A DNA stretch of 64,000 nt from an uncultured Gemmataceae bacterium (GCA_963750165.1 CAVVPN010000003.1:800001-864000), one strand, 5' to 3'; positions 33,957 to 56,601 are shown, numbered from the stretch's first letter. Numbers and translations are program-made. The notes: generated by a model from the sequence alone, not told the origin.

Positions 33957-34693
33957 TTATGGTGTCGGGCTTGGTGGCCACCATGGCTTGCATGCGCGCA
34001 GGTGCGAGTCCACGAACAGCACGTTCGGGATCAGGATTTCTTCGCGCGCGCGCCCGTGGTGACGATGTGCATGTCGCCCGAGCCCAGGCCGAGGAGCCAG
34101 TGGCGAAACAGATCCTGCTGCTCTTTCTCGAAGACCATGCCGCGCGTGTCGAAACTCCGCTCGCCGCCGCCGATCAGGACCGTGTGCGTGAGTTGCCCGG
34201 CCTGCAGCCGCCAGTAACTCAGGCGGTCGAAGAAGAACACCGTCAGAAACCAGGCGATGAACAGCGCCGCTGAGAAGGAGACGTAGAACCCAAGGTTGAT
34301 GTAGCCCGCCAGGTGGGGCATCAGGTTCAGGATGTGGGTCCACCAGCCCAGGTAGGCGAACAGGACCGTGAGGAACATGGCCGCCAGCACCACGATGACT
34401 GAAGCCAGGCCGCGCACCGTCGTGTTGGTAATCAGGATGACCAGGAACAGCACCACTCCGAACACCACGCCGAGATCCTTGCTCGGGTGTATGTGTACTT
34501 CCACGTTCGACTCCGGGAAGGTGACCTTGTTGCCGTCCAGGAGCGTAATCAGCGCCAGGATGAAGCCGACCACCCAGACCGGCCACCAGTAAAAGAGCAT
34601 CGAATGGCTGTAGATGCGCAGTTCCCTCCCACTGAGGTCATTCGCGCGTTCTTCCAGTTGTTCGGGCGTGATTTCGGTGTTGGGGCCGGCCAT
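33957..34693 (-). CDS. Hypothetical membrane protein (probable frameshift ~34045; true 3' end uncertain)
   Basis: YSHSMLFYWWPVW, ~4 TM segments, DLFRHWLLGLGSGD; continues as EEILIPNVLFV in another frame. Confidence 0.7.
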
Positions 34694-34776
34694 GATGGCT
34701 CTCCTTCAAGGAGCGAAGTTCCAGTACAATGGGCGGCCCGTCCAGGCTCCGCAGTGCCGGGCGCCAGGATAGGGAA

Positions 34777-34791
34777 GCAACGGCCGTGCCA
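34777..34791 (-). promoter_or_regulatory. sigma-54 -24/-12 promoter motif
   Basis: TGGCAC-GGCCG-TTGC, ~85 nt upstream of the ATG at 34693. Confidence 0.7.
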
Positions 34792-34844
34792 ATCGCGACA
34801 CTGGCCACATCCCGGGGCAGACGTGGCTTTTCTCGGGTGCCCCC

Positions 34845-37800
34845 TCATGTGCCGGGGGAAACCGCCGCCGGCGGCGCGGCAAGAGCGCCCGGTTCGACCT
34901 TGCCGGAGGTTGGCGGCGAGAGCGCCGGCGGCGGAGCCCTCAAGCGCTTCACTTCCGCATGGAGCACTTCCAGCACCGCACGCACTTCCGCCTCCTCCTC
35001 GGCCTGAACCCGTTCAACCACCACCGCCGCGAAGGACAACATGCTGTCGCCGAGCGTGCTGAGCAACTCGGCCCCCTGGCGGCGCAGCTTCGGCAGCGGG
35101 TCCGCCAGCGCCGCGGCCACCACCGCGGCGGCCGCTGTGTTATCCGGCTCGCTCAGCAGCAGCGCGTGGGCCGCCTCCAACCGCACCTGGAAGTTGGGGT
35201 CCTGCACCAGCCGCTGGCACACCTCGCGCCGACCCTCGTAGTGCAGCGCCTTCAGGGCACGCACGGCGTTCAAGCGCACCGCGTCGTCCGAGCGCGTCGT
35301 ACACTCGGCCAGCAGCGGCCCCGCCGCGGCCGGCATCTCGGCCAGCCGCAGCAGCACCTGGGCGACGTTGGCCCGCACGCGGTCCTCGGGATCCTTCAGG
35401 CCCTCGAGCATCACCGGGGCCGCCTCCGGCGGCAGCGCCGGCGCCTCCATCAGGCCCGCGGACGCCACCTTGCGCAGGTCGGCGTCCGGGTCAGCCATGC
35501 CGGCCAGAAACGCGGCCAGTCCCTCCGGCGGCTGGATCTTGACAAGCGCCCGCAGGGCCTGCTCGCGCACCGGCCCCTCGCTCGACTGGAAGGCACGGAG
35601 CAGCGCCGCCCCCGCCGCAGCCGCAGCCGATCCCAGCCTGCCCAGCGCCTGGGCCGCGACGACCTGCACCTCTTCTGTGTCATCCTCCAGCAGTTTGCCC
35701 AACTCCTCCAGCACCGCGGGCGTCGCCCCGGCCACCTCCGGTAGCGCTCGCGCCGCCTCGATCTTCACCTGGTCGTTGGCGTCACCCAGCGCCGCCAGCA
35801 GGTCGCCCACCGCCTCCGGATCCTTGCCCAGCGCCCGCACCGCGGCGGCCCGCACCTGCGGGTCGGGCTGGCGCAGGAATGCCCGGGCGACCGCGCGCAC
35901 GCGCCCGGCGGGCGCCTCCAGTTCCACCAGCGTCAACAGCGCCTGACTGCGCTCCGGACCGTCCGCGTTGCACGCCGCCGCTTCCAGCGCGGCAAGCACT
36001 GTCTCGCCAGCATCGCCCAGCCGGCCCAGCGCCCACGCCGCCGCGGCACGCACCTCCGGGTTGACGTGCGCCAGTGCCTGGACCAGTCCAGACGCCGCCG
36101 GCCGCGCCGCCGGCCCGACCTCGCCCAGGGCGTGCGCCGCCAGGGCGTTGATGTGATTGTCCGGGTCGTCCAGTAGTCGGCCGAGCGCCGGCACCGCCTC
36201 TGCCGCGGCCGGCCCCATCTTGCCCAGCGCCTCCGCCGCCCGCGCTCGCACCCGATCGCTGGGGTCGGCCAGCGCCTGCACCAGCGCCGGGATCGACTCC
36301 GCCGCGGACGCCCCGATGGCGCCCAGCACCTCCGCCGTCTGAGCCCGCACCAGGTTGTCCGCGCTGGCCAGCCCCTCCGTCAGCCGCGACTCCGTGCCCT
36401 CCACCGGGCCGATCTGCTTGATCGCCTCGGCCACCGCCTGACGCACCACCTTCTCGCGATCCTGCATCAGTTCCACCAGCCGCGGCAGGGCCGGCCGGGC
36501 TTCGGCGCCCAGGGCGCCCAGCGCCAGCGCTGCCGCCGACCGCACCGCGGCGCTGGCGTCGTCCAGCAGCGGCCGCAGCCCTTGCAACCGGGCCGCCGGG
36601 TCGCCGCCGACCTTGCCCAGCGTTTCCGCCGCGCAGATGCGCACCGATTCGTCAGCGTCCGCCAGCAGGCCCACCAGTTCCGGCACCGCCGTGGCGGCCG
36701 CGGCACCGAACTCGGCCAGCGCAGCGACCGCCCGGGCGCGCACCTCCGCCGCCGGGTCGGCCAGCAACAGCCGCAGCGCCGCCACCACCGCCGCCACCGG
36801 GTTCTGCTCGCGCAACCGCAGCAGCCAGCGCTTCCACTGAAGCGCCAACCCCACCCAGCGCCGCGACTCCCGCAGTGCCCGGCGGAGCTGCCATTGTTTG
36901 CGGATCGCCCGCGTGCCGGGGCTGGCCAGCGTCGCCAGTGCCTCGACCAGGCTCTGCCGTACCAGCGGGCTCGGGTCCTGCGCCAGCCGGGCCAGCGCCG
37001 GCAACGCGTCCAGGGTGTGCAGCTGCCCCAGGGCCGCGGCCGCCACCGCCCGCGCCGACTCCTCCGGCCGGCGCAACTCGCGGACCAGCAACGGCACCGC
37101 CGCCGGCCCCATGTTGGCCAGCACCGTCGCCACCTCCTCGCGCTGCGTCGGCGTTGGCACTCCGGCGCCGCCCAGCGAGCGCAACAGCGGCACCACCGCG
37201 TTGGCCCCGAACGACGCCAGCGCCAGGCCAGCCCGCTCGTGGATCGGTGCGTGGGGGCTCCAGTAATCACGGATCGTCTCACCAAGGTCCTTCGAGCGCC
37301 GCACCGCCGCGAACACCTGTTGCAGCAGCACCAGCGTGAAGAAGCTGCGGAACAGCACGAGCAGCGCCTTCGCCGGCCATTGCGCCTGGTGGACGTAGGT
37401 GAGATGGACGACGTTAAACGTGTTAATCACGTTGAGCAGGTCGGCTACCTGGAGCAGGTTGATGAGCGTGTACGCCAGGAAATCGGGGTAATTCGGCCCC
37501 TCTTGAGTCCATTCCAGGAGCAGGCCGCGCAGCGTCCACGGGCTGGCCTCCACGGTCAGCGTGTACCAGGAGCGGCCGACCGTGTGGTACAGCCCCTGGT
37601 TGAGCAGGGCGAAACCGCTGATGACCGCCAGGGTCGCCACCACCATCAACGGGATGCCGGCGCGATGGCCGTAACGCACCAGGTTGGTGGCCAGCTCCTG
37701 GCCCTTGACAGGGTTGTGCAGCGCCTTGTAGCCGCGGCGCACGTCCACGCGCTCCAGGTCGATGTAGATGTAGGCCATGCAGGTCACGACCCCCAGGAAG

Positions 37801-38105
37801 ATCAGGACCAGGCCGCAGAAGACGGCGCGGACGGGATTCTGCGTGCCGTCGAACCAGGCCAGGTAGTGCAGCGCCGCCACCAGCGCCAGGAACATCGGCC
37901 AGGGCGCCCAGGACAGCAGCCGTCGCCACAGGGCGAACCCCGTCTTCAGGGCGGTCTGCATCCCCCGGCTCGCCAGCCGCACGGCGCCGCCGAGCAGCCC
38001 CACCTGATAGGCGAGGCCGGCCAGCACCAGGACGCCAGCGAACCCGCCCAGCAGTGTCGTCGTCGAGCCCAGCGTGTCCAGCGCGATCAGCGCGGCGGCG
38101 AACAT
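34845..38105 (-). CDS. Membrane-anchored HEAT-repeat protein
   Basis: N-terminal multi-TM region followed by many L.D....VR..AA.ALG repeats. Confidence 0.85.
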   Translation of the reverse strand: MFAAALIALDTLGSTTTLLGGFAGVLVLAGLAYQVGLLGGAVRLASRGMQTALKTGFALWRRLLSWAPWPMFLALVAALHYLAWFDGTQNPVRAVFCGLVLIFLGVVTCMAYIYIDLERVDVRRGYKALHNPVKGQELATNLVRYGHRAGIPLMVVATLAVISGFALLNQGLYHTVGRSWYTLTVEASPWTLRGLLLEWTQEGPNYPDFLAYTLINLLQVADLLNVINTFNVVHLTYVHQAQWPAKALLVLFRSFFTLVLLQQVFAAVRRSKDLGETIRDYWSPHAPIHERAGLALASFGANAVVPLLRSLGGAGVPTPTQREEVATVLANMGPAAVPLLVRELRRPEESARAVAAAALGQLHTLDALPALARLAQDPSPLVRQSLVEALATLASPGTRAIRKQWQLRRALRESRRWVGLALQWKRWLLRLREQNPVAAVVAALRLLLADPAAEVRARAVAALAEFGAAAATAVPELVGLLADADESVRICAAETLGKVGGDPAARLQGLRPLLDDASAAVRSAAALALGALGAEARPALPRLVELMQDREKVVRQAVAEAIKQIGPVEGTESRLTEGLASADNLVRAQTAEVLGAIGASAAESIPALVQALADPSDRVRARAAEALGKMGPAAAEAVPALGRLLDDPDNHINALAAHALGEVGPAARPAASGLVQALAHVNPEVRAAAAWALGRLGDAGETVLAALEAAACNADGPERSQALLTLVELEAPAGRVRAVARAFLRQPDPQVRAAAVRALGKDPEAVGDLLAALGDANDQVKIEAARALPEVAGATPAVLEELGKLLEDDTEEVQVVAAQALGRLGSAAAAAGAALLRAFQSSEGPVREQALRALVKIQPPEGLAAFLAGMADPDADLRKVASAGLMEAPALPPEAAPVMLEGLKDPEDRVRANVAQVLLRLAEMPAAAGPLLAECTTRSDDAVRLNAVRALKALHYEGRREVCQRLVQDPNFQVRLEAAHALLLSEPDNTAAAAVVAAALADPLPKLRRQGAELLSTLGDSMLSFAAVVVERVQAEEEAEVRAVLEVLHAEVKRLRAPPPALSPPTSGKVEPGALAAPPAAVSPGT

Positions 38106-38277
38106 GATTGCTCCGTGTTGGATTCGGGGGAAAGCCGGGAAGCAAAGCGGCACAGGCCCCTTGACCTGTGCCGCTCGTGATGTCTGTAGAAGGCTGCGGC
38201 GAGCGGCGCGGCGTCAGCCCGCCGGTGTTTGAAAGTATCGGCGGGCTGACGCCGCGCCGCTCGCCACGCACGACGAG

Positions 38278-38751
38278 TTAGCTGCCCGCCACCTGGTTGT
38301 TCGAGCCCAGCGCCAACTGGCCGGCGGCGCCGACACCGGCGGCGGGCGCGACCGCCACCGGGGCGGGCTGGCTGGCCGGCGTCTGGTTGGTGGCTACCTG
38401 ATTGGTGGGCGCCTGGCCGGGCGGAAGCTGGTTCGCGGCCACTGGATTGGCAGCCGCCTGCGGCGTGGGAGCTGGGGCCACATTGGGCTGGGCGGTGACG
38501 ACGGCCGGCGGCGTCGCCTCGGCTTGCCGGGTTACACGGCCGATCTGGCCAATCCCCAGGCCGATGACCAACAGGGCCAGGCCCGTCGCCATGAAGCCCG
38601 TGATCCAGTAATACGGCACCGGGTCGTTGTCGGTCGCGTTCTGGGAGCGGTACGCCCAGTACACCCCTGTCCAGACCATCATCAGGATGCCCACCGTAAT
38701 GTACGTCAGGGCCGTTTTCGCGGGCGAAGAGGTCGGTCGCACAAATTGCAT
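38278..38751 (-). CDS. Small 2-TM protein with Pro/Ala/Gln-rich tail
   Basis: Two hydrophobic helices, then low-complexity C-terminus. Confidence 0.7.
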   Translation of the reverse strand: MQFVRPTSSPAKTALTYITVGILMMVWTGVYWAYRSQNATDNDPVPYYWITGFMATGLALLVIGLGIGQIGRVTRQAEATPPAVVTAQPNVAPAPTPQAAANPVAANQLPPGQAPTNQVATNQTPASQPAPVAVAPAAGVGAAGQLALGSNNQVAGS

Positions 38752-38840
38752 GACATGGTCTCCCTTCACGTCAAAATGTCAAACTTCGTTTATGTCAAAC
38801 TCCGGAACGGCGGAGGCTCAGGACTTCGCCCTCCCAAATT

Positions 38841-38855
38841 GCAAACGGAGTGCCG
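38841..38855 (-). promoter_or_regulatory. sigma-54 -24/-12 promoter motif
   Basis: CGGCAC-TCCGT-TTGCA upstream of 38751. Confidence 0.7.
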
Positions 38856-39203
38856 GTTGCCATCTCGGGCCTGAACTTTGTCACCGCAGCGTAGACGCCC
38901 CATTGTTCAATTCGCTGCGCAATTTGCTGGACACGGACGCCCGCATTCCCGAACAATTGAAGCAAACAACAACCGGCTGCGTCCCGCGCCGCGCCCTGCG
39001 GAAAAACAGCTGGAAGCCAACTTCCCAAAATCGGACGAGGCGGTTCTCGAACCCAGGGCCGGTCGCGCCGCGGCCGTGGGCCGTTCTGGAAGTCCAGATT
39101 GTCCTCCTCCCGGTCGGGCGGAAAACGGTATCATGGTTATCGCCTGCCGCGGGGTTGGTCCGCGGCGTCGCAACCTGTGTGTGTGTGAGCGGAAGGGGGC
39201 GCG

Positions 39204-39971
39204 ATGAGCCAGGAAGCCCAACCGGTGCCCGCAGGGGCTGCGCTGGAAGACTTGCGGCGGCTGGCCGACGCCGGGGAGATCGCCGGCCCGCTGGCCCACG
39301 AAGTCAACAACTTCCTGAACGTCCTGGTGCTGAACGTGGCGGTGCTGGAGCAGGTGATGCCCGAGGCGCAGCGCGGCGAACTGCAGCAGATCCGCCGTCA
39401 GGGCGTGGCCGTCGCGGAGCTGGTGCGTCAGTTCCAGCTGTGCCGGCGGCGGCCGCCACTGCCGCTCGAACCGCTCGACCTGCACCAGATACTGCACGAG
39501 GTGCTGTCGGCCCTGGCCGCCGCGGCGCCGGAGTTGGGCCAGGCGCCGCCGATCCATGTCGTCAGGCCGGGTGGCCCCGCCGCCGCGCCGGGCACGGTGC
39601 CGGTCGTCCTGGAGCTGGCGGCAGACCTGCCGCCGGTGCTCGGGCTGGCGGCGGACCTGCGGCGGCTGCTGTCCTTCTTGCTGGCGAACGCCGCGGCCGC
39701 GTCGGCGCGGATCGACGGCCGGGTGCGGGTGCGCACCGGGCGCGGTGCGAACGGCGTGCTGCTGCGGGTGGAGGACGGCGGCCCGCTGGTGGACGTGGAT
39801 CGGCTGGCGCACTTCTTCGATGCGTCGGTGCCAGCGCGGGAGGGGGTGAACCGGCTGGAGCTGGCGGCGTGCAAGGCGCTCGCGCGGCGGTTGCAGGGCA
39901 AGATCGAAGCCCAGCCGTGTTTGGAGGCGGGGGCCGCCGTCGTGGTCGAGTTGAAGACTGCCGGAGGATGA
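39204..39971 (+). CDS. Sensorless histidine-kinase-like protein with degenerate ATP-binding boxes
   Basis: H-box LAHEVNN, N-box LLANA, G1 EDGGP; G2 box replaced by NRLEL. Confidence 0.75.
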   Translation: MSQEAQPVPAGAALEDLRRLADAGEIAGPLAHEVNNFLNVLVLNVAVLEQVMPEAQRGELQQIRRQGVAVAELVRQFQLCRRRPPLPLEPLDLHQILHEVLSALAAAAPELGQAPPIHVVRPGGPAAAPGTVPVVLELAADLPPVLGLAADLRRLLSFLLANAAAASARIDGRVRVRTGRGANGVLLRVEDGGPLVDVDRLAHFFDASVPAREGVNRLELAACKALARRLQGKIEAQPCLEAGAAVVVELKTAGG

Positions 39972-40052
39972 GGGATGACTGGGTGACTGGGTGAGGGGGT
40001 GAGAGAATGTTGTCTTTCACCCCCTCACCCAGTCACCCAGTCACCCTCATCC

Positions 40053-41537
<1,485 letters not shown>

Positions 41538-41988
41538 CGCTGGTCTCCGTTGCTGGTGAATAGGGCCGACCCCGACCGCTTCTCCACGGCTGTCGGTCCC
41601 TCGCCCCGGACAGATTTCCTGCGTCCGGCGGTGAGCAACTAGCTTCTCGTTTTTGTTATAACCAGTGCGCAACTGCGCCCGGTTTGTCGGACCCACTGCC
41701 AGCTGCTAGCGGCGGTGGGGCCAGTGCCGTTGGACACGGTAAGAAAACTCGGAAGCTAGCAAAATCCCCGATGTTTTCCTGGGAAAAGAAGACCATTCGC
41801 TAGTCTTCGCTGCCCGGCGGACAGTTCGGCAAGAATCGGCAATGACTGGAATCAAACCCCTCTCCATCAATGTTATGAGAGATTGAATTGAGCAATTTCC
41901 AGGCCAATTGCGGGCAAGGCTGGTGTCAAGAAATGTTCAGGAGCATGCCTCCCGCTTCGGGAAGCGGTGCGCCGGCCGCGGGACTGGT

Positions 41989-42004
41989 TGGCACACTTCT
42001 TGCA
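41989..42004 (+). promoter_or_regulatory. sigma-54 -24/-12 promoter motif
   Basis: TGGCAC-ACTTC-TTGCA, full consensus, divergent from the NtrC-like gene. Confidence 0.8.
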
Positions 42005-42115: not shown

Positions 42116-42547
42116 ATGGCAAATCAGACGACCAGCTCGAAGGGGAACGATCCCCGCAGCACGGCCGGCCAGGCCGTGGACAAGGCCAAGGACGTGGCTG
42201 CGCAGGCGATGGACAAGGCCCGGGACGCCGCGTCCTCGGTGGGCGAGATGGCCAGCAATGTCGCCTCGACCGTGGGCCGCAAGGCCGACGACTACACCCA
42301 CGCGGCGGGCAGCGGCATCAAAAACATCGGCGATACCATCCGCGAGCACGGCCCTCAGGAGGGCATGCTCGGCCAGGCGACCAAGTCCGTCGCCAGCACC
42401 ACCAAGGATGTCGGCCGCTATCTGGAGGAAGAGGGCCTGAGCGGCATGATGGAAGACGTGACCACCCTGATCAAGCGGAACCCCATTCCGGCCATCCTGG
42501 TCGGTCTCGGTGTGGGCGTGTTGCTGGGTCGCTTGCTGAGGAGTTAG
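42116..42547 (+). CDS. LEA-like / ElaB-YqjD-like C-tail-anchored stress protein
   Basis: DKAKD repeats; IKRNPIPAILVGLGVGVLLGRLL tail. Confidence 0.7.
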   Translation: MANQTTSSKGNDPRSTAGQAVDKAKDVAAQAMDKARDAASSVGEMASNVASTVGRKADDYTHAAGSGIKNIGDTIREHGPQEGMLGQATKSVASTTKDVGRYLEEEGLSGMMEDVTTLIKRNPIPAILVGLGVGVLLGRLLRS

Positions 42548-42551
42548 TGTC

Positions 42552-42995
42552 ATGGCTACCGAGGTCCAGAATCATCAGGACAACGCCAGCGTGGCGACGC
42601 TGGTCAGTGGCATCGTCACCGATGTCCAGGACCTCATCAAGCAGCAGCTGCAACTGACGCGCAAGGAGATCGAGGCGGACTTCCGGAAAACCCGGGAAGC
42701 TGCCTCGGTCCTGATCCTCGGGATCGGGCTTTTCTCCCTCGGCGGTATCGCACTGGTCTTGATGCTGGCCCACTTAATCCACCGCCTGACACTGCCCGCC
42801 GGGCAGGTCCACAGTTTCGATCCGGCTACCGTCCCGTTGTGGGGCTGCTTTGGCATCGTCGCTGCCGTGTTCCTGGTGGTTGGCGGCGCCCTGGCCTTCG
42901 CGGGCAAGAAGAAGTTTGACTCCTTCAACCCGCTTCCCGATGAATCCGCCCAGGCTTTGAAGGAGAATGTCGAATGGATCGCGAACAAGAGGTAA
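42552..42995 (+). CDS. Phage-holin-family (YqjE/DUF1469-like) membrane protein
   Basis: SVATLVSGIVTDVQDLIKQQLQLTRKEI, 2 TM, LKENVEWI. Confidence 0.75.
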   Translation: MATEVQNHQDNASVATLVSGIVTDVQDLIKQQLQLTRKEIEADFRKTREAASVLILGIGLFSLGGIALVLMLAHLIHRLTLPAGQVHSFDPATVPLWGCFGIVAAVFLVVGGALAFAGKKKFDSFNPLPDESAQALKENVEWIANKR

Positions 42996-43843
42996 TCCAC
43001 AAGCAAATGGAAGAGACGCGCGCAGACCTGACCGAGAAGCTGTCCGAACTGGAACAGCAGGTAGGCGGCACGGTCGCGGCGGCCACCAGTGCTGTCGAGA
43101 CCACCAAGGAGGCCGTCACCGATACCGTTGAGGCCGTGAGCAACACGGTCGAAAACGTCAAGGAAAGCTTTGAAACCACCGTCGATACCGTCAAGGACAC
43201 CGTCCAGGAGACGGTGTCCGCAGTCAAGGAGTCGGTGCGGGAGACGGTGCAGTCGGTGGCGGACACGTTCAACCTGCGGCTGCAAACCGAACGCCACCCC
43301 TGGGCGATGTTCGGCGGCTCGATCGCGGTGGGGGCGCTGGCCGGCTACTTGCTGGGGGGCAGTTCCCGGGGCAGACGGTTCCGCTACAACGCCGAGCAGA
43401 TGCGGCCGCAGCGTCTGCCGGAGCGGACGCCAGCCGAGCATGAGTCGATGTTCGGCAGCGCCGCCAGCGCCGTTGAACACGCGGCCGGCAACGTCGCCAG
43501 CACCGTGGGCCACGCGACCAGCAGCGCCGCCAGCGCCGCCGGCAAGGTGGCGAGCAAGGCCGGCGGCCTGTTCAGCGGCTGGCTCGGCGAGCAGCTCGGC
43601 GGCCTCAAGGGCCTGGCGGTCGGCGCCATGATGGGCGTGGTCCGCGACCTGGCCAGGCAGGTCGTGCCCGAGTCCGTCAAGGAGCGCGTGGCCGAGGAAA
43701 TGGACAAGTTCACGCGCAGTCTGGGCGGCGAGCCGATCAAGGGCTCGCTGCTGCCCGAGAACAACGACCAACCGGAACCGCCGCCGCACAACGGCCACGG
43801 CCAGCGCCAGGGCCAGCCGGAGACGGCCGGAGTCCGGTACTGA
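42974..43843 (+). CDS. DUF3618/LEA-like stress protein
   Basis: MEETRADLTEKL, 11-mer V..TV..VKE repeats, HPWAMFGG. Confidence 0.7.
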   Translation: MDREQEVIHKQMEETRADLTEKLSELEQQVGGTVAAATSAVETTKEAVTDTVEAVSNTVENVKESFETTVDTVKDTVQETVSAVKESVRETVQSVADTFNLRLQTERHPWAMFGGSIAVGALAGYLLGGSSRGRRFRYNAEQMRPQRLPERTPAEHESMFGSAASAVEHAAGNVASTVGHATSSAASAAGKVASKAGGLFSGWLGEQLGGLKGLAVGAMMGVVRDLARQVVPESVKERVAEEMDKFTRSLGGEPIKGSLLPENNDQPEPPPHNGHGQRQGQPETAGVRY

Positions 43844-43849
43844 GACGCG

Positions 43850-45236: not shown

Positions 45237-45251
45237 GCAAACATCGTACCG
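45237..45251 (-). promoter_or_regulatory. sigma-54 -24/-12 promoter motif
   Basis: CGGTAC-GATGT-TTGCA upstream of 45146. Confidence 0.6.
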
Positions 45252-45462: not shown

Positions 45463-45477
45463 CGGCATATGAATTGC
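45463..45477 (+). promoter_or_regulatory. sigma-54 -24/-12 promoter motif
   Basis: CGGCAT-ATGAA-TTGCT upstream of 45548. Confidence 0.65.
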
Positions 45478-46503: not shown

Positions 46504-46518
46504 CGGCACCCGAATTGC
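46504..46518 (+). promoter_or_regulatory. sigma-54 -24/-12 promoter motif
   Basis: CGGCAC-CCGAA-TTGCA upstream of 46588. Confidence 0.7.
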
Positions 46519-46587: not shown

Positions 46588-46827
46588 ATGTTGAAGAAAG
46601 CACTGCTCGCCCTGGCTCTGTTCGTGACGGTGGGGTTCGCCACGCTGGCCACTCCAGACACCGCGGACGCGCGGATCTTCGGGCGTCGCTTTGGGTACTA
46701 CGGCGGGTTCTACCGGCCGTACTACGGCGGGTATTACGGCTCCTACTCGCCGTACTACTATGGCAGTTACTACCGTCCCTACTACAGCGGCTTCTACACC
46801 GCGCCGTATTACTACTATGGCTGGTGA
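46588..46827 (+). CDS. Small secreted Tyr/Gly-rich protein, paralog of the previous gene
   Basis: GGGAGG RBS; signal peptide homologous to the upstream gene (VGFATL.TP..ADA); 20 Tyr in 51 mature residues. Confidence 0.75.
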   Translation: MLKKALLALALFVTVGFATLATPDTADARIFGRRFGYYGGFYRPYYGGYYGSYSPYYYGSYYRPYYSGFYTAPYYYYGW

Positions 46828-46938: not shown

Positions 46939-47445
46939 ATGGCTACGCAGCAGAAGACAACGTCCAGCAACAACGCGGCCGCCAGCGGCCAGGTCACGCG
47001 CGAGGAGCTGATCCGCCTGCTCAACGAGGATCTGTCCCGCGAGTACCAGGCCATCATCGCCTACGTCGTCTACTCGCAGGTGCTCAAGGGCGCCGAGTAC
47101 ATGAACATTGCCCAGGAGTTGGAGAAGCACGCCGCCCAGGAACTGAAGCACGCCCTGATCGTCTCCAGCCAGATCGATTACCTGGGCGGTATGCCGAGTG
47201 TCACCCCCAAGCCGGTGCGGACCTCCGAGGACGCCCGCGAAATGCTGCGTTTCGACCTGGACAACGAGAACGAGACCATCCGCAACTACCGCGAGCGCGT
47301 CCGCCAGTGCGAGGCGCTGGGCGAGTACGCCATCGCCGAGCACCTCCGCGCCATCCTCGTCAACGAGCAGGAGCACCAGATTGATCTGGCGACCGCTCTG
47401 GGCGAGGACGTGCCCGATGTGACCACAGCTGAGCAGCGGGCGTGA
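46939..47445 (+). CDS. Ferritin-like (bacterioferritin-related) diiron protein
   Basis: LNEDLSREYQAII, QELKHA, ENETI..Y, EQEH. Confidence 0.85.
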   Translation: MATQQKTTSSNNAAASGQVTREELIRLLNEDLSREYQAIIAYVVYSQVLKGAEYMNIAQELEKHAAQELKHALIVSSQIDYLGGMPSVTPKPVRTSEDAREMLRFDLDNENETIRNYRERVRQCEALGEYAIAEHLRAILVNEQEHQIDLATALGEDVPDVTTAEQRA

Positions 47446-47556: not shown

Positions 47557-48207
47557 TTACACCGTGATGCGCGGCTGCCCAGGAGGGGCGGTGCTGGCCC
47601 ACGCCGAGCGGACTCCGAAGCCCACCAGCCGCAACGTGGGGCCCGAGCCCGCCAACGCTCCGGCGATGGCCGCGAGCATCGACAGCACGATACCGCCGAA
47701 CGTCCACCACGCGGCGCTGACCATCCGCGAATTGCGGGCGCTGTCCTCCGCCTGCCGCTGGGCGGTCTCGGTGCGCACCGTGGTTGTCGTCGTGACCTGC
47801 ACGTTCTGGTTTGACGCCGTCGCGGGGTTGAACGTCTCGCCCATCACGCCCACGAAGCCGACGTTGACGCGCGTGGCCATCAGCGCCAGCAGCATTGTGA
47901 AGATGGTGCCCCACAGGATGACGCCGTAGATCACCGACTCCTCCTTGGTCTCGCCAGCGGTACAGCGGCTGACCACGCAGCCGCCGCTGAACAGCGCCAG
48001 GATCAGCGTCAGGATCGCCCAGATGGCGGCGCCCATGCTGATGTCAGTGTCGCCCTGCTTGTACAGGATGGTGGCGCCGATCGCCGTGCCCAGCACGCTG
48101 AGCAGGAAAAGGACGGCCACAGTGGTCATCGCGCCGCCCAGGATCGCCCCCCAGCTGACGCGGCTGCGCACGCCCGCCACGTCCTGCAATTGCACTTCGT
48201 TCGTCAT
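47557..48207 (-). CDS. Conserved stress-associated membrane protein (RVSWGAI motif)
   Basis: SRVSWGAILGG, 4 TM segments, AAWWTF. Confidence 0.7.
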   Translation of the reverse strand: MTNEVQLQDVAGVRSRVSWGAILGGAMTTVAVLFLLSVLGTAIGATILYKQGDTDISMGAAIWAILTLILALFSGGCVVSRCTAGETKEESVIYGVILWGTIFTMLLALMATRVNVGFVGVMGETFNPATASNQNVQVTTTTTVRTETAQRQAEDSARNSRMVSAAWWTFGGIVLSMLAAIAGALAGSGPTLRLVGFGVRSAWASTAPPGQPRITV

Positions 48208-48276: not shown

Positions 48277-48291
48277 GCAAACGATGTGCCT
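48277..48291 (-). promoter_or_regulatory. sigma-54 -24/-12 promoter motif
   Basis: AGGCAC-ATCGT-TTGCA upstream of 48207. Confidence 0.7.
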
Positions 48292-48470: not shown

Positions 48471-51400
48471 ATGTTGCACCGTTCTCCGCGCCGCCTCGGC
48501 CTGGCGCTGGTGAGTCCCATTGTCGCCGTCGCCCTGGCATTGTGGCCCGCGGCCGCCGGCGACAAGGGCGGCCTCGACATCATCGCCACCCTCAAGGGCC
48601 ACGACCAGGAGGTGTACGCCATCGCCTTCAGCCCCGACGGCAAGCAGGTCGTGACCGGCAGCTTCGACCACAAGGCCAAGCTCTGGGATGCCGCCACCGG
48701 CAAGGAACTGCGCACCTTCGCCGGGCCGCAGGGCCACACCAAGCAGGTGCTCACCGTCGCCTTCAGCCCCGACGGCCATCACATCGCCACCGGCGGCGCC
48801 GACAACACCCTCAAACTGTGGGACGTGCCCAGTAATTCGCCGCTGCGGGCGCTGCTCGAAAAGGACGCGGTGAACGGCATCGCCCTGAGCGCCGACGGCA
48901 CCAAGCTGGCGACTGCCGGCAAGGACGGCCTGGTCAAGCTGTGGAACGCCGCCGATTTCAAGCCGCTGTTCACGATGAGCGGCCACAGCGGCCCCGTCAC
49001 CGCGGTCGCGTTCAGCGCCAACGGCCAGACGCTCGCCAGCAGCGGTAGTGACCGGACGGTGCGCTTCTGGGCCGTCGCCAACGGCCAGTCGGTCGGCGTC
49101 ATCGGGGCGCACACCGCGGCGGCGAACAACGTCGTCTTCCACCCGAACAACACCACCGCCTACAGCGTCGGCGGCGACGGCATGCTGAAGTTCTGGCAGG
49201 TGCCGCCGCCGGCGTCGCGGTCGCTGGCCGGCCACACCGACGCGGTGACGGCGCTGGCGCTCAGCTCCGACAACAGCCAGGTGCTGACCGCCGGCGCGGA
49301 CAAGACGGTGCGCGGCTTCACGTTCGCCAACGGCCAGCTGGCGCGGACGCTGACCGGCGCCACCGCGGCGGTCAACGCGGTGGCGGTCAACAGCAACACG
49401 TCGCTGGTCGTCGGCGGCGCGGCGGACGGCCAGGTGTTTTACTGGAACGGCGCGGACAACAAGCTTATCGGGCACCAGTTGGCCCACGCGGGCGGTGTCA
49501 CGGGCGTGAGCGTGCATCCGCAGAACACGCAGTCTGCTGACGGGCGGGGCGGACGGGCTGGCCAAGCTGTGGGCGCTGCCGCCGGTGCCGCCGCGGACGT
49601 TCGCGCACCCGGAGCCGGTGCAGTATGCGGTCGCCAGCGCTGACGGCAAGAAGGTGTACACCGCGGCGGGCAACAAGGTCCGCACCTGGGACGTGGCCAA
49701 GGGCGCCATCGAGAAGGAGTACGCGGGCCACGCGGCGGCGGTCACCGCGGTGGCGGTCAGTCCGAACGGGCAAATCCTCGTCTCCGGCGGCGCCGACCCG
49801 GCCATCCGCTTCCGGGATCAGAAGACCGGCAAGGAGGAACACCAGTACGGTCACGACGGCGGCGCCATCACGTCGCTGGCGATCAACGCCGCCGGGAATC
49901 AGCTGCTGTCGGCGGAGGCGAAGGGCCATGTGAAAGTGTGGTCGCTGCCGCCGGTGCCGCCGAAGGCGCTGCCGCACGGCGACGCGGTGACGTGCGTGGC
50001 CGTCAGCGCCGACGGGGCGAAGGTGCTGACCGGCGGCAGCGACAAGACGGTGCGACTGTGGAACGCCGCCACCGGGGCGAAGGAGCGCGACTTCACCGGC
50101 CCGGCTGGCAAGGTGCTGGCGGTGGCGTTCAGCCCGGATGGCAAGTACATCGCGGCGGCCAGCGAGGACAAGGCCGTGACGGTGTGGACGACCGCCGACG
50201 GCAAGCAGGTGAAGAAGTACGCATTGCCCGCGGCGGGGGCGGCGGTGGCGTTCAGCCCGGCCAACAAGACGTTCGCGGTCGGCGGTGCGGATAACATCAT
50301 TCGCGTGTTTGACGTGACCAAGGACAAGGAGGAAAAGGCGCTCACGGGCCACACGGGGACGGTGACGGGTTTGGCGTACCTCGGCAAGGGCGAGCAACTG
50401 CTGTCGGGCAGCGCGGACGCCACGGTGCAGCTGTGGAACGTCGCCCAGGCGAAATCCGAGAAGCAATTCAAGCTCAACGCGCCGGTGCTCAGCCTGAGCG
50501 TGAGCAAGAACGGCGGCACGTTCGCCGCCGCGATGGAGAAGATGGTGCTTGTCCGTGCGCTGGACGCCAAGGGCGACGGTGACGGCTTCGCGGCCAACAA
50601 GGTTCGCTCCGCCAGCCTGTCGCCGGACGGTGCGAAGCTCGCCGTCGCCACGGCGGACAACCGCGTCACCGTCTACAACGCTGCCGCGGGCCGGGCCTAC
50701 GGCGTCAGCACCGAGTTCTTCACTCACGACGGCGTGCAGGCAGTCGCGTTCCACCCGGACGGCAAGCGCCTCGTGAGCGGCGGCGGCGACAAGGCGGCGC
50801 GTGTCTGGACGCAGGCGCTGCTGTGGCAAACCCAGCGAACCGGGAAGCCGGAGGTCGCCATCTACAGCCCCAAGGGCGACCTGATCATCGCCGCCGGCGA
50901 CAAGGCCATCAAAATCTACCAGGCGGCCGACGGCAAGGAACTGCGCACCATCGCTGCGAACGACGGCCCGGTGAACAGACTGAGCCTCAGCGCCGACGGC
51001 ACGCGCCTCACAGCCGCCGGCGCGAGGGACAAGCTCGTCAAGGTGTGGGACACCGCCGCCAAGGGCGATGATCCGCTGGCTACGTTCGAGGTGGGCGCGA
51101 ATGCGCACGCGGTTATCAGCCCCAACGGCCAGCGTGTGGCGGTCACCAGCGTCGGGCAGGACCTGATCACCAACCTGCAAGTCTTTGACCTGGTGCTGGG
51201 CCGCGAGGTGCAGACCTTCCGCGACAAGCAGCTGTACGCCGAGGGCTTCCTGCCCGACAACCGCACGCTGCTGGTCAGCAGCCCGGCCGGGAAAAACGTC
51301 CAGTTGCTGGACGTGAACGTGCTGACCGCCTTCGATGCCCACAAGGGCGGCGTCGTCAGCGCCCAGTATCACAGCAGCGGCGCCTTGATCCTGACCGCCG

Positions 51401-53119
51401 GCAAGGACAACACCGTCAAACTCTGGGATGTGGTCAAAAGCAACGTGCTGAAAACGAAGACCTTCGGCCCCTTCCCCGACCCGGTGCGCGCCGCCGTGTT
51501 CAGCCGTGATTTCACGCAGGTCGGCGCCGCGGTCGGCAAGAGCGTCAAGGTGTGGAACGTCGCCGACGGCAAGGAAGTGCTGACGCTGCCGCACCCGGCG
51601 GAGGTCGCGGCGCTATCGTTCAGCGCCGACAAGACGCGCATCGCCACCGCCGCGGCGGACAAACAAACGCGGCTCTGGGACGCGGCCACCGGCAAGGAAC
51701 TACAATTCTTCGCGCAGCCCGGTGCCGTGCAGACGGTCCTCTATCACCCGAACAACGCGGCGATCCTGAGCGGCGGCACCGACAAGGTGGTCAGCATCGA
51801 CGCGCCGGCGATTCAACGGTTGATCCCCGCCGCGACGGCACCGCTGCACGCGCTGACGCTGACGCCGAACGCCACACACGTCGTCACCGCCGGGGCTGAT
51901 AAAACCGTGACGTTCTGGAACCTCGCCAACGGCAACAAGGAAAAAACCTTCGGCGGCGCGACGGTCACGCTGTTCGCGGTGGCGCTCAACAAGGCCAACA
52001 CGCTGCTCGCGGCCGGCGGCGCCGACAAGCGCGTGCGCTTGTATAACCTCGCGGACGGCAAGGAAATCAAGGCCGTGGCGCTGGGCGGCGCAGTCAAGAC
52101 GCTACAGTTCAGCCCGAACAACCTGGCGCTGGCGGCCGGAAGTGCGGACAAAACGCTGCAAGTGTGGAGCACGCCGTTCACACCCGGACAGCCGTTGTCG
52201 CCGGACCTGCTGAAGCCGCTGCAAACCTTCACGCACGACGGCGCCGTGACCGATGTGGCCTTCGCCGCGGACAATGCCACGCTGTACGCCAGCAGTCTCG
52301 GCAACAGCGTCAAGGCGTTCCGCGTTGCGGCGGACGCACCGACCAAGAGTTTCGGGCACCCGAACCAGGTGTACGCGGTGGCGTTCAGCCCCAACGGCAA
52401 CCTGCTGGCGACCGGCAATGTCGATGGCAAAATCCGCATTTACGACGTGGCCAAGGCCACGCTGGTCAAGGAGATCAACGCCCACACGGTCAAGGACATG
52501 ACGCAGATTTACAACGTCGCCTTCACGCCGGACGGCAAGCAGATCGCCAGCTGCAGCTACGACAACAGCATCAAACTGTTCGACGCCACGAGCGGGGCGC
52601 TGGTCAAGGAGTTCAAGGCGTACAAGGTGAAGGACTTCGAGAAGGGTCACCGCGACCCGGTCTTCAGCATCGCGATCAGCCCGGACGGCAAATTTCTGGC
52701 AAGCGGCTCGGGCGGCATCGAGCGCGTCATCAAAATCTGGAACCTCGCCGACGGCAGTGTGGTGCGCGACCTGAACAACCCGAAGCTGAAGCGCTTCGGC
52801 GTGAAGCCGCCACCGAAGTCGCACCCGGGCTGGATCTACGCCCTGCGCTTCACGAAGGACGGCAAGCTCGTCAGCGTCGGCGACGCGCCGATCAACAAGG
52901 GCTACCTGGCGGTCTGGAACCCGCAAGACGGCAAGCTGCTCTACGGCGAAGAACTGCCGCTGGGCTCGTTCTACGCGCTGGCACTGACGGCGAACGGCGA
53001 CCGCTTGGCCATCGCCGCGGGGCCGCGGCAGACCGACGCCGGGGTTCAACAGTGGGTATGTGGTCAAGATGCCCGTGAAGGGAGCGCCAAGCGGCAAGCC
53101 GCAGAAACAGGAGCGCTAA
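48471..53119 (+). CDS. Large secreted WD40-repeat protein (frameshifts ~49530 and ~53025)
   Basis: Signal peptide; many GH..V..VAFSPDG..D.TVKLWD repeats across frames. Confidence 0.85.
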
Positions 53120-53208
53120 GCGGCAAGCCGCAGAAAGAAGGCACCGAGCGCCGGGTCTTTTCTTTCTGCGGCTTGCCGCTTAGCGCTTCCGCCATCAAGG
53201 GAGTGAGC

Positions 53209-53813
53209 ATGAAAACCATCGTCTTCGACTTCGGCAACGTCCTCGGCTTCTTCGACCATTACCGCACGCTGAACAAGCTGACGCCGTACACCGACATGGC
53301 CGCCGCGGACATGCTCGCCGCGGTCTACGGCGCCGAACTGGAGGACGACTTCGAGTCGGGCGCATCAGCGCCGCGGAGTTCCTGCGGCAGTACCGCGCCC
53401 TGTGCCGGCTCACCTGCGAAGACGACTTCCTCCGCGCCGCCTGCGCCGACATCTTCCGGCCGAACGAACCCGTCTGCGCCCTGGTGCCGCGGCTCAAGGC
53501 GCAGGGCTACACCCTGCTGCTCGGCAGCAACACCAATGAAATCCACTCGGCCCACTTCCGCCAGCAGTTCGCGGACACGCTGCGGCACTTCGACGCCCTG
53601 GTGCTCTCGCACGAGGCCGGCGTGCGCAAGCCGCGGCCGGAGTTCTTCGCGCACTGTCAGCGTTTGGCGGGCTGCCCGCCGCGGGAGTGCGTCTTCATTG
53701 ACGACCTGGCCGCGAACGTCGCGGGGGCCGTGGCGTGCGGCTGGCACGGCATCGTGTATATTGACGCCGAAGACTTGCAGACGCGGCTGAAACAACTGGG
53801 CGTGCGACTGTGA
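53209..53813 (+). CDS. HAD-family phosphatase (frameshift ~53365)
   Basis: FDFGNVL, LGSNTN, RKPRP, FIDD. Confidence 0.85.
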
Positions 53814-53822
53814 GGGCGTGTC

Positions 53823-56090
53823 ATGGAGACCCCGTTGATTGTGGCGCTGGTCGTCGGCGGGCTGGGGTTGCTCGCGTTCCTGTGGTGGGGCAGCCCGCCG
53901 GCCCGCTGTTTCGCCGCCCACGGCGCCGCCAGCCGGGCGTACAACGCGGGCCGTTACGACGAGGCGGAACGACACGCGCGGCGGGCACTCGACCTGGTCG
54001 AGCGGCACCACCTGGACGAGCGGCTCTACCTCGCCGCCCTGAACCTGCTCGGCCAGATCAACATGGCCCAGGGGAAGCTCGACGAGGCGGAGGAACTGCT
54101 CAGGGACTCGCTGGAGGGGATGAAGCGGCGGCTGCGGCCGGATCACCCGGACGTGGCGGCCGGGCTGAACAACCTCGGCAAGCTCTGCAGCGAGCGCGGC
54201 CACTACGACGCGGCGGAGATGTACTACCGCCAGGCGCTGGAAATCTGGCAGAAGGCCCACGGGCCGGACCACGACCACGTTACCACGGCCCTGAACAACC
54301 TCGGCAACGTCTACCTGCAACAGTCCCGCTACGCGGAAGCCGCGGTCGTCCTGGAGCGCAGCCTGGCCGTCCGCGAGCGGCGCCACGGCCCCGGCCACGC
54401 CGAGGTCGCCCAGGCCCGCAACAACCTCGCCAACTGCTACGCCAGCCAGGGCGACTACGCCGCGGCGGAAGCCCTTTACGAGAAGGCGCTGGCCGACGCC
54501 GAGCGCGCACTGGGGCCGGACCACCCGACGGTGGCGCACGTCTGGCAGAACCTGGGCAGCCTTTACTCGAAGCAGGGGAAGTACGACGCGGCCGACGCGG
54601 CCCAGCAGCGGTCCCTGGCCATCAAGCAGCGGGCCTTCGGCGGCGACCACGCGGAGATCGCCAGCGCGCTGAACAACGAGGCGGTGCTGTGCCATAGGCG
54701 CGGCGACTACCGCACGGCCGAGCAGCTCTGGCGGCAGGCGCTGGCCATGAAGGAGCGCCTGCTCGGCCCGGACCACCCGCAGGTGGCACTGGGGCTGAAC
54801 AACCTGGGGGCCGTGGCCCAGGCGCAGGCCCGGTACGACGAGGCCGAGGCATACTTCCGCCGCGCCCTCGCCGTCCACGAGTGCAACGACCCGAACCACC
54901 CGAACGTGGCCAAATGCCTGAACAACCTCGGCATGGTGCAGTCCACCCGCGGGCACCACGCGCAGGCCCGGGCGCTGCTCGAACGGTCGCTCGCCGCCGA
55001 CGAGCGCACGCGGGGGCCGGACCACCCCGAGGTCGCCCACCGCCTCAACAACCTGGCGGTGCTGTGCATCCGCGAAGGCAAGTACGCCCAGGCCGAGCAG
55101 CTGCTGCGCCGCGCGCTGGCCATCCGCGAAAAAGCGCTCGGCCCGGACCACCCGGACGTGGGCCAGGCCCTGCTCAACCTGTCGTCCGTCTACCTCGAAC
55201 TGGGCAAACCCGCCGACGCCCTGCCGCTGTGCCGGCGCGGCCTGGAGGTGCAGGAAAAGCGGCTGGGGCCGGAGCACCCGCACCTGGCGCAGGCGTTCAA
55301 CAACCTGTGCGTCATCTACCAGCAGCAGGCCCGCTTCGACGAGGCGGAGCCGCCGGGCCGGCGGGCGCTGGCCATCCGGCAGAAGGCGCTGCCGCCGGGC
55401 CACCCGGACGTGGGCGAGTGCCTGATGAACCTCGGGTCGCTGCTGCTGCGCCGCGGGCGCTACGACGAGGCGGAGCCGTACTACCGCGATTCGGTGGCGC
55501 TGTTCGCGACGGCGCTGGGCCAGGGGCACGCGCGCTACGCGGCGGCGGTCAACAACCTGGGGGCGCTGCACGCGCGGCAGGGCCGTTACGCCGAGGCGGA
55601 GCCGCTGCTGCGGGAGGCGCTGGACGTCCGCCGGCAAGCGCTGGGGCCGGACCACCACACGCTGGGCGAGACGTGGACGCGGCTGGCCGAGCTGTATCTG
55701 TGGCAGGGCCGGCCCGCGGAGGCGGAGGCTGTGGCCCGTCAGGCGGTGGTGGCCCGTGGGGCGGGACTGGGGCCGGACCATCCTTCCGTGGGGCAGAGTT
55801 TGGTGGTGCTGGGGGATGCTTGCCGCGACCAGGGCCGGCAGGATGAGGCGGAGCCGCTGTACCGCCAGGCCCTCGGCATCCTGGAAGCGGCGTGGGGGGC
55901 AGAGCACCCCGAGGTGGCGAAGGCGCTGCGCGGCTGGGGCCGGCTGCACCTGGCCCGCGGCGACCGCGGCGCGGCCGAGCCGCTGCTGAGCCGCGCCTTC
56001 GTGATCCGCGAACGAACACTCGGGGGGGAGCATCCCGAGACGACCGAGAGCCGGCGCGATTGCGACGAGTGCGGGCGGGGCGGTTCTTGA
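53823..56090 (+). CDS. Membrane-anchored TPR protein (kinesin-light-chain-type 42-aa repeats)
   Basis: Repeated LGPDHP.VA..LNNLG. Confidence 0.9.
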   Translation: METPLIVALVVGGLGLLAFLWWGSPPARCFAAHGAASRAYNAGRYDEAERHARRALDLVERHHLDERLYLAALNLLGQINMAQGKLDEAEELLRDSLEGMKRRLRPDHPDVAAGLNNLGKLCSERGHYDAAEMYYRQALEIWQKAHGPDHDHVTTALNNLGNVYLQQSRYAEAAVVLERSLAVRERRHGPGHAEVAQARNNLANCYASQGDYAAAEALYEKALADAERALGPDHPTVAHVWQNLGSLYSKQGKYDAADAAQQRSLAIKQRAFGGDHAEIASALNNEAVLCHRRGDYRTAEQLWRQALAMKERLLGPDHPQVALGLNNLGAVAQAQARYDEAEAYFRRALAVHECNDPNHPNVAKCLNNLGMVQSTRGHHAQARALLERSLAADERTRGPDHPEVAHRLNNLAVLCIREGKYAQAEQLLRRALAIREKALGPDHPDVGQALLNLSSVYLELGKPADALPLCRRGLEVQEKRLGPEHPHLAQAFNNLCVIYQQQARFDEAEPPGRRALAIRQKALPPGHPDVGECLMNLGSLLLRRGRYDEAEPYYRDSVALFATALGQGHARYAAAVNNLGALHARQGRYAEAEPLLREALDVRRQALGPDHHTLGETWTRLAELYLWQGRPAEAEAVARQAVVARGAGLGPDHPSVGQSLVVLGDACRDQGRQDEAEPLYRQALGILEAAWGAEHPEVAKALRGWGRLHLARGDRGAAEPLLSRAFVIRERTLGGEHPETTESRRDCDECGRGGS

Positions 56091-56170
56091 AGGGAGCCCG
56101 CAGCGCCAGCAAGGGTAGGACCTCTACCCTTGCTGGCGCTGCGGGCTCCCTTCAAGCAAGGGCCGCCGCG

Positions 56171-56485
56171 TCACGAGGACGCCCTGGCGGCGTTGCGCTT
56201 GCGGGTGGCCGCCGCCTTCTTCGCGGAGGCGGAGCGCGCCGCGGCCGGTCGTGCCGCCGACGCCTGGCCGCCCTTGTGGCCGCCCTTCTTGCTCGACTCG
56301 TTCGTGTCCTCTTTGCCGCGGCCACTGCCCGACTTGTTGCCGCCGCCGGTCTCCTTGTTGACCGTCGCCCAGGCCCGCCGCGCGGCCTCTTGCTCATCCA
56401 CGCCGCGGCTCTCGTAGCCCTCCTCGATGTGCTCCGCCTGGCGTTTCTGCTTGTCCGTGTACTTCGACTTGTCCCCGCGTGGCAT
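56171..56485 (-). CDS. Small basic hydrophilic stress protein (KGG motif; often labelled plasmid stabilization protein)
   Basis: MPRGDKSKYTDKQKRQAEHIEEGY..AWATVNK..KKGG. Confidence 0.8.
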   Translation of the reverse strand: MPRGDKSKYTDKQKRQAEHIEEGYESRGVDEQEAARRAWATVNKETGGGNKSGSGRGKEDTNESSKKGGHKGGQASAARPAAARSASAKKAAATRKRNAARASS

Positions 56486-56586
56486 GGCCTTACCCTCCTT
56501 CTCGGTGCAAAATCAGATCACGGCCCCGGCGCTTGCCGGGCGCCTGGCTGCGATCAACGCATGGTTCCGACCAGTAAGATTACATG

Positions 56587-56601
56587 GCAAATCGTGTGCC
56601 G
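56587..56601 (-). promoter_or_regulatory. sigma-54 -24/-12 promoter motif
   Basis: CGGCAC-ACGAT-TTGC upstream of 56485. Confidence 0.7.

Follow-up and report, generated by a model that had tools for sequence, protein, structure and literature searches.

A cluster of predicted sigma-54 promoters ahead of protection genes in an uncultured Gemmataceae bacterium

How a planctomycete might switch on its genes for general stress protection is the question raised by the 64,000-nucleotide (nt) stretch of DNA analysed here (the window; contig 3:800001-864000 of an uncultured Gemmataceae bacterium, GCA_963750165.1), in which a gene for an NtrC-type activator lies among genes for small membrane-anchored or secreted proteins, a Dps/ferritin-like protein and a DUF4142 protein, with sigma-54-type motifs between them. 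We know of no general stress regulator described in Planctomycetes. An earlier note on this DNA had proposed a stress programme run through sigma-54 and one dedicated activator. We analysed the window, the genome around it (9.62 Mb, 66.5% G+C, 12 contigs, 93%-complete) and 60 relatives from the same family, one per genus (codes G0xx below). The sigma-54 promoters of that proposal were supported, and the genes behind such promoters have a strong stress flavour genome-wide; the single regulon with a single activator was not supported, and the window promoters share no dyad. We consider it probable that the window holds a sigma-54 promoter island of protection genes, not a single regulon, in which the local activator would drive the adjacent operon through an 18-bp dyad.

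Sigma-54-type motifs in the window, the genome and the family

We noted that the strict pattern GGYAY-N5-TTGC matches the window 11 times against 2.50 expected (standard deviation 1.47), a number reached by none of 100 dinucleotide shuffles; the loose pattern GG-N10-GC showed no enrichment (1522 matches versus 1533.8 expected). All nine motifs named in the earlier note are present, at 2273+, 34777-, 38841-, 41990+, 45237-, 45464+, 46505+, 48277- and 56587- (three of the coordinates in that note are one base early through counting of the leading N). Their placement was also as described there: by our own gene calls (a codon-bias caller; 7552 genes, 82% coverage) each is intergenic and aimed at a start codon that follows the GC at 70-113 nt, and a ribosome site, GGAG or GAGG, stands ahead of most of these start codons. 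The two remaining strict matches, 14244+ and 25386-, fall within genes, a count near the chance expectation.

The counts exceed the controls in the genome as in the window. The genome has 298 strict matches in all: 159 fall in intergenic DNA (18% of the sequence by our calls), 124 aim at a same-strand start within 300 nt, and 75 of these are 40-130 nt away from it. The reversed pattern and three altered spacers (4, 6 and 7), four controls equal to the motif in composition, gave 39-70 intergenic matches, 13-27 pointing at a start and 3-10 in the 40-130 nt band. The motif in promoter position is thus about ten-fold over the reversed and wrong-spacing controls, and the excess is gone once the spacer is altered by one or two bases. 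This excess corresponds to roughly one hundred sigma-54-type promoter sites in the genome. The base after TTGC is A or T in 60 of 78 well-placed sites versus 45 of 139 matches within genes, and a T stands ahead of TTGC in 35 of 78 versus 24 of 139. Since both preferences lie outside the search pattern and are predicted by the sigma-54 consensus, they support sigma-54 sites. In the window, A or T follows TTGC at eight of the nine sites; a T before GG, common in the relatives, is found at only two. The eight motifs within 22 kb form the densest cluster of the genome (Poisson mean 0.28), the next unrelated cluster having four.

Individual sites were scored with a matrix made from the well-placed strict sites of this genome. 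The motif next to the activator gene, GGCACACTTCTTGC (41990..42003, +; score 15.8), is 113 nt upstream of a three-gene operon (42116..43843, +; the 42116 operon), encoding a helical protein of 143 residues (membrane-anchored at its C-terminus and likened to ElaB/YqjD/CsbD on resemblance alone), a holin-X protein (PF07332, Phage_holin_3_6, 71.9 bits) and a 289-residue apolipoprotein-like helical protein. Two motifs stand back to back: GGTACGATGTTTGC (45237..45250, -; 17.6), 91 nt upstream of the gene for a YflT-like glycine-zipper protein (44595-45146, -), and GGCATATGAATTGC (45464..45477, +; 18.6), 71 nt upstream of a DUF4142 gene (45548-46059, +), whose broken reading frame leaves two fragments of 46.4 and 40.5 bits. 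Next comes GGCACCCGAATTGC (46505..46518, +; 21.3), 70 nt upstream of the gene for a secreted Tyr/Gly-rich protein of 79 residues (46588-46827, +), with the Dps/ferritin-like gene (46939-47445, +; Ferritin, 80.1 bits) 112 nt past it. Membrane proteins are encoded behind three motifs: GGCACGGCCGTTGC (34777..34790, -; 19.0), 84 nt upstream of 34031..34693 (-), whose multi-pass product of 220 residues is present in 57 of the 60 relatives searched and matched no Pfam or NCBIfam family in profile searches; GGCACTCCGTTTGC (38841..38854, -; 21.0), 90 nt upstream of its first gene, 38278-38751 (-; small, 157 residues); and GGCACATCGTTTGC (48277..48290, -; 17.2), 70 nt upstream of 47557-48207 (-; 216 residues). 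At the end of the island, GGCACACGATTTGC (56587..56600, -; 19.1) is 102 nt upstream of the gene for a hydrophilic Lys/Gly-rich protein of 104 residues (56171-56485, -), for which profile searches gave no family and the ESM Atlas leads are weak, below 0.9. The ninth motif, GGCACATGATTTGC (2273..2286, +; 20.1), lies 78 nt ahead of the ATG at 2365 of a REC-GGDEF gene (2365-3311, +; GGDEF, 156.9 bits), in which the reading frame is broken near codon 45-50. The frame breaks in this gene and in the DUF4142 gene may be assembly indel errors or real pseudogenes.

The family labels given to these genes earlier fared unevenly. Holin-X, DUF4142, ferritin-like and GGDEF are above curated cut-offs; KGG, DUF3618 and DUF883/ElaB gave no match at E<=1e-2. 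YflT, at 24.8 bits, is just below its Pfam cut-off of 26.2, and CsbD/DUF883_C for the leader of the 42116 operon are language-model (ESM Atlas) leads only, at 0.80-0.86.

Conservation of the motifs was judged in the relatives, a motif counting as conserved if a site scoring at least 12 lies upstream of the orthologue; the background is 2.3% of about 1500 random genes of this genome, within 300 nt upstream. Motifs are retained in other genera ahead of four gene families. For the YflT-like gene (orthologues of 47-57% identity by tblastn), 10 of 13 orthologues have a motif at this score and 12 of 13 one of at least 9, the sites lying 66-92 nt upstream. The leader of the 42116 operon has it in 18 of 24 relatives, one exception standing directly behind a motif-bearing YflT gene, and the three-gene order behind the motif recurs in G002, G065 and G066. 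For 34031 the motif is present in 9 of 13 close orthologues and in none of 11 distant paralogues; for Dps, in 11 of 18 relative loci, ten of them with the site 36-90 nt upstream and one with it behind a small upstream gene, as in the window. Conservation is weaker for 47557 (3 of 17 at 12 or above, four more at 8.8-11.6). The YflT-like gene is rare outside the family (3 of 200 genomes of the phylum at E<=1e-20), and its promoter conservation is therefore judged only within it; of four loci from one other family, two score at least 9 (18.3 and 9.4), both in one genome and each 62 nt upstream. The YflT-like gene, 42116, 34031, 47557, Dps and the activator share contigs in eight relatives (G004, G006, G012, G013, G016, G031, G037 and G060).

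The machinery that such promoters need is encoded in the genome. An rpoN gene, the presence of which had been proposed as a check, was found: Sigma54_DBD (PF04552) matches at 202.2 bits at contig 4:508564-509034, and the product, of 506 residues, ends in the RpoN-box-like ARRTVTKYR. All three refuting conditions of the earlier note that could be computed (on motif frequency, conservation in orthologous promoters and rpoN) gave results favourable to it. PF00158 gave 33 matches genome-wide, 24 of them strong. Among 22 called proteins with the sigma-54 AAA+ domain, 19 carry GAFTGA, two carry GSFTGA (one of them the window's activator) and one neither. Many activator genes adjoin a sigma-54 motif, divergently or within the same operon (for example contig 11:177839/179046, contig 12:178921/180349, contig 12:818096/818828 and contig 11:1324771/1326080), so that local pairs of activator and target look like the rule and could help to assign sub-regulons. 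Three activator genes are split (contig 4:341423-341922, contig 12:834819-835318 and contig 3:3046124-3046625); oddly, these paralogues break at the same PF00158 position (about 44-51), and assembly indels or pseudogenes are possible.

Because of the consensus match, the 70-113 nt placement and the recurrence ahead of orthologues in other genera, we infer transcription from the nine motifs, which very probably are working sigma-54 promoters. At each site, the sigma-54 holoenzyme would sit as a closed complex, firing only once an AAA+ enhancer-binding activator had remodelled it. The genes thus served would be those for the small membrane-anchored or secreted protection proteins, Dps, the DUF4142 protein and the diguanylate cyclase.

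Genes behind the genome-wide motif set

Outside the window, 78 first genes lie behind well-placed motifs. After two identical transposase copies were dropped, the products of the other 76, each cut to 180 residues, were compared with Pfam; 42 have a family at E<=1e-4 and 34 do not. Twelve of the 76 are protection proteins: GroEL, GroES, two Hsp20, four Usp, an S30AE/hibernation factor, a Mn-catalase, DJ-1/PfpI and Transgly_assoc. Regulators are represented by two CsrA, a DksA-like protein, STAS, PilZ, two receivers, PAS, a protoglobin and CBS; among the others are a LigD 3'-phosphoesterase, an alpha-glucan phosphorylase-like protein, CBM48, HypF and two RND pumps. In jackhmmer searches, 11 of 40 members of such families other than the seeds have a motif of their own or of their operon's leader, versus 3.3% of all genes; two of these 11 share an operon with a seed. 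No RpoH scored above the cut-off in this 93%-complete genome (best 159.7 versus 323.1 bits), and no HrcA was found in it.

With sigma-54-type promoters ahead of the island genes and of GroEL/ES, Hsp20, Usp, the hibernation factor and the Mn-catalase, stress protection in this genome is predicted to run largely through sigma-54. A broader proposal, which we put forward tentatively and hold to be rather less probable than its converse, is that sigma-54 and its roughly two dozen activators took over the roles of RpoH/HrcA and of RpoS/SigB/EcfG in this family, the stress response being split into ATP-gated, signal-specific modules, of which the island's kinase, activator and dyad would be the best-defined. 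Chaperones, Dps, the hibernation factor, Usp and a group of membrane-anchored protection proteins would then all be expressed from enhancer-dependent promoters. If true, genes for heat shock, hibernation and general protection would depend, across a whole family, on the enhancer-dependent sigma factor. Promoters of this type stay tightly closed until a signal arrives, and every module would answer to a sensor of its own, a logic unlike the single stress sigma factor of model bacteria.

A transposase gene (HTH_33/HTH_32/HTH_23) is present in three identical copies, at contig 1:435269, contig 10:280341 and contig 3:2375378. Each has GGCATGAAAGTTGC 52 nt upstream, which may be a sigma-54-like promoter of its own or a chance match repeated with the copies.

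The local activator, its kinase and an 18-bp dyad

The window's activator gene (40053..41537, -) encodes an NtrC-type enhancer-binding protein with a receiver domain (REC, PF00072, 104 bits), the AAA+ domain (PF00158, 244 bits) and a Fis-type helix-turn-helix (HTH_8, PF02954, 34.9 bits); its Walker A motif, GETGTGK, is at residue 200 and GSFTGA at 248. The earlier note was right about its type, its GSFTGA and its divergence from 41990+, but not in calling this the best motif, as 41990+ scores the weakest of the nine. The protein is not an equivalog of AtoC, NtrC, ZraR or PspF: the best NCBIfam model, AtoC, gives 511 bits against a cut-off of 714, and the rest are below theirs too. A paralogue 62% identical to it is encoded at contig 3:357347-358825. 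Converging on the activator gene is a gene for a short soluble histidine kinase (39204..39971, +; HATPase_c), with the gene call starting at 39225 and an in-frame ATG at 39204; profile searches showed no sensor domain in it. The kinase is likely the activator's partner, and a kinase of this type adjoins the activator orthologue in 5 of 29 relative loci.

In six genera (G002, G037, G047, G060, G065 and G066) the orthologues of the activator and of 42116 are less than 2.5 kb apart, and in G004, G031 and G045 they are 10-18 kb apart on the same contig; most of the other relative assemblies are too fragmented to judge this linkage. A match to the activator at E<=1e-150 is found in 23 of 28 relatives with 42116 versus 11 of 32 without it, in a sample of relatives that are kin and not independent. 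In 21 of the 29 activator orthologue loci a sigma-54 motif lies within 1.5 kb, outside the activator gene itself.

Comparison of the 42116 promoters yielded an 18-bp dyad, TGRGCAR-N4-YTGCYCA. With up to two mismatches it is present in 6 of 17 of these promoters, at -91 to -126, two of the six having defined it, and in 5 of 17 YflT-like promoters, none of which was used in its definition. Controls gave 0 of 9 for 34031, 0 of 5 for 47557 and 3 of 115 for the motif-bearing promoters of this genome; the background is 863 sites in the 9.62 Mb, or one per 11 kb and about 0.015 per promoter region. In G002 a copy without mismatches stands 167 nt ahead of the 42116 promoter, and in G034 one with a single mismatch stands 97 nt ahead of the promoter adjoining the activator gene. 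In the window, the copy TGAGCAATTTCCAGGCCA (41889..41906, two mismatches) is 101 nt upstream of 41990+ and is a candidate binding site of the activator. A dyad-like site with two mismatches (41632..41649) lies about 95 nt upstream of the activator's start codon, and two overlapping weak copies with three mismatches each (38904..38933) are 50-79 nt upstream of the 38841- motif.

Other candidates for an activator site were tried and rejected. A seed-and-refine motif search in the window was confounded by the overlapping divergent pair 45237-/45464+, and the same search in 17 promoters of 42116 gave 12.75 bits, barely above shuffles (11.6-11.8). Exact k-mers common to the window promoters amounted to nothing beyond GC-rich noise. 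The words TGAGCA, GARCAAT and CAATTG proved to belong to the dyad or to be local to the two activator-adjacent promoters (one CAATTG and two GARCAAT are near 38904-38933), and one TGCTCA in G031 is the loop of a terminator hairpin.

The pairing of activators with sites is inferred, and so are the inducing signals. We think it somewhat likely, on balance, that the local kinase phosphorylates the REC-AAA-HTH activator and that the latter, bound to the dyad about 100 nt upstream, opens 41990+, the promoter ahead of the ElaB-like/holin-X/apolipoprotein-like operon. The activator might perhaps also drive the 38841- promoter and its own gene, and the other promoters in the window would be served by further members of the set of about two dozen activators. 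We doubt that most of the nine promoters are under the local activator. Probably the island is a set of co-located sigma-54-driven protection genes rather than one regulon.

Several observations weigh against parts of this reading. The gene caller is crude and home-made, the matrix derives from the same genome's own strict matches, about 15-25 of the 124 oriented sites in the genome are expected by chance, and several 'stress' labels of the window proteins rest on resemblance, not on profile matches. As to the dyad, the dyad-like sites between genes of the island lie only around the kinase/activator pair and have two or three mismatches, and no dyad is common to the window's eight independent upstream regions (half-sites of 4-6 nt and spacers of 0-12 were searched). 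Read on the minus strand, 41889-41906 is also a weak sigma-54-like site, ATTGGCCTGGAAATTGCTCAA (score 12.1), aimed at the activator gene; the left half of this copy, TGGGCA, resembles a -24 element, and weak sites of a similar kind, TGGCC[T/C], precede the activator orthologues in G047 and G060. The copy could thus be a secondary promoter and not an activator site, although its two-fold symmetry fits a dimeric activator better. Dyad-bearing promoters are found in G006 (95% complete), G049 (one contig, 97%) and G016, which have no activator match at E<=1e-150, and the dyad may be read by another activator; moreover, this cut mixes the activator with the lineage of its 62%-identical paralogue. 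Finally, YflT, 34031 and Dps paralogues at contig 3:1994214-1997138 and 2009489-2010532 are without a strong motif. The best score in this second island is 8.7 (GGCACGTAATTCGC, ahead of the Dps paralogue), and there is one strict motif at the island's edge (1994159-). These features suggest that a second set of stress genes exists in parallel and is controlled differently, and paralogues without strong motifs mean that sigma-54 is not the sole route.

The strongest alternative is that all nine promoters, and perhaps others, respond to the local kinase/activator pair and make up one general-stress or dormancy programme. The island of eight promoters holds just one activator gene in its 22 kb, the activator orthologue stands amid YflT, 34031, 47557, Dps and 42116 orthologues in G004 and G060, and relatives carry the dyad at YflT-like and 42116 promoters alike. 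However, the window promoters are without a common upstream element: a dyad with up to two mismatches was not found at seven of the nine (45237-, 45464+, 46505+, 48277-, 34777-, 56587- and 2273+). In the relatives it is likewise missing from the promoters of Dps, 34031 and 47557, and five relatives with 42116 have no activator at the threshold used. A single programme of this kind appears improbable to us. Still less probable is that the sites are real but the genes are transcribed mainly from sigma-70 or extracytoplasmic function (ECF) promoters, with sigma-54 a minor or conditional input. The stress-gene paralogues elsewhere in the genome fit that possibility, but in four gene families the motif stays at a fixed distance from genus to genus, and neither RpoH nor HrcA was found for the chaperone genes. 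Finally, that the motifs are chance matches, or sites of another DNA-binding protein unrelated to sigma-54, is hardly credible: the unenriched loose pattern, the 2 of 11 strict window matches inside genes and the chance share of the oriented genome sites would allow it, but it is contradicted by the spacing, orientation and distance controls, by consensus bases at unsearched positions, by conservation in orthologous promoters and by the presence of rpoN and activators.

Known systems and further observations

Local stress modules under sigma-54 control, psp, rtc and zra, exist in Proteobacteria, and PspF, the psp activator, has no receiver domain. The island resembles these modules in that the activator gene diverges from a predicted sigma-54 operon whose products are small membrane-associated stress proteins, a candidate binding site lies about 100 nt upstream, and the activator probably controls its own gene. 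It differs in that the activator here has a receiver domain and a neighbouring kinase, and the operon proteins are unrelated to PspA-E. The effector types also overlap with those of the general stress regulons of RpoS (E. coli), SigB (Bacillus) and EcfG (Alphaproteobacteria), whose typical targets include Dps, YflT-like and ElaB/YqjD/CsbD-like proteins, Usp, a hibernation factor, Mn-catalase, holin-X and DUF4142 proteins. Those regulons are each under one sigma-70-family master switch; here the promoters belong to the sigma-54 type, for which ATP-driven activators are required, and among these activators no single master stands out.

The earlier note knew of no description of such a programme in the phylum, which is too strong. 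An in-silico survey from 2025 with position-specific scoring matrices (PMC12316311) reports predicted sigma-54 promoters at stress genes in Planctomycetia, enriched at GroEL, GroES, IbpA, GrpE and DnaJ/K, and also at ATP-dependent proteases, Usp, CsrA, MscS and NtrC-type regulators. A general connection of sigma-54 with the phylum's stress genes had thus already been published as a prediction, and the same classes are found in our genome (GroEL, GroES, Hsp20, Usp, CsrA and activator genes). That survey works by COG categories; its main text describes no promoter island, per-gene conservation in this family or activator site, and Dps, ferritin, general stress, dormancy, hibernation and Gemmata are absent from it. 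In earlier work, PMC2754498 cites a 2004 in-silico study (Studholme and Dixon) of the sigma-54 activators of Pirellula (sp. strain 1), and PMC3906078 cites the cloning of rpoN from Planctomyces limnophilus. According to the passages of PMC2754498 on Rhodopirellula baltica, rpoN was not heat-induced there and a sigma-54 promoter was proposed only for a thioredoxin gene; they also describe a general stress cluster, RB4432-4438 (ferritin/Dps), induced by several stresses. This is likewise a planctomycete cluster with Dps/ferritin, and the comparison made here is one of gene content. New here are the predicted promoter island, the small general-stress-type proteins and Dps as putative conserved targets in the family, and the candidate kinase/activator/dyad module. 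The handles offered are about one hundred candidate promoters, the conserved island, one kinase/activator pair and the 18-bp candidate site, and several small conserved proteins of unknown function are given a regulatory context.

A few features near the promoters were also noted. Four genes encode small secreted Tyr/Gly-rich proteins without a known family (46196-46471, 46588-46827, contig 3:3258217-3259026 and contig 3:2446713-2447126); three of them are directly behind a sigma-54 motif, and 46196-46471 has none of its own and is at most behind 45464+. Downstream of 38278-38751, on the same strand, is a gene for a HEAT-repeat protein of 1086 residues (34845-38105, -), the 43%-identical orthologue of which in G004 adjoins an ElaB-like gene near the activator (locus L005). 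Between the island promoters, 48471-56090 encodes WD40 proteins of 390 and 1401 residues and a TPR protein of 755 residues, without a motif of their own; the two WD40 genes, whose calls overlap by 59 nt, may be one. Directly upstream of the 56587- promoter is a 64-nt inverted repeat (56613-56676 / 56742-56805; 81% complementary, 65 nt apart), which extends to the start of a SUFU-like gene at 56818 and may serve as a platform for an activator, form an RNA structure or represent a miniature mobile element.

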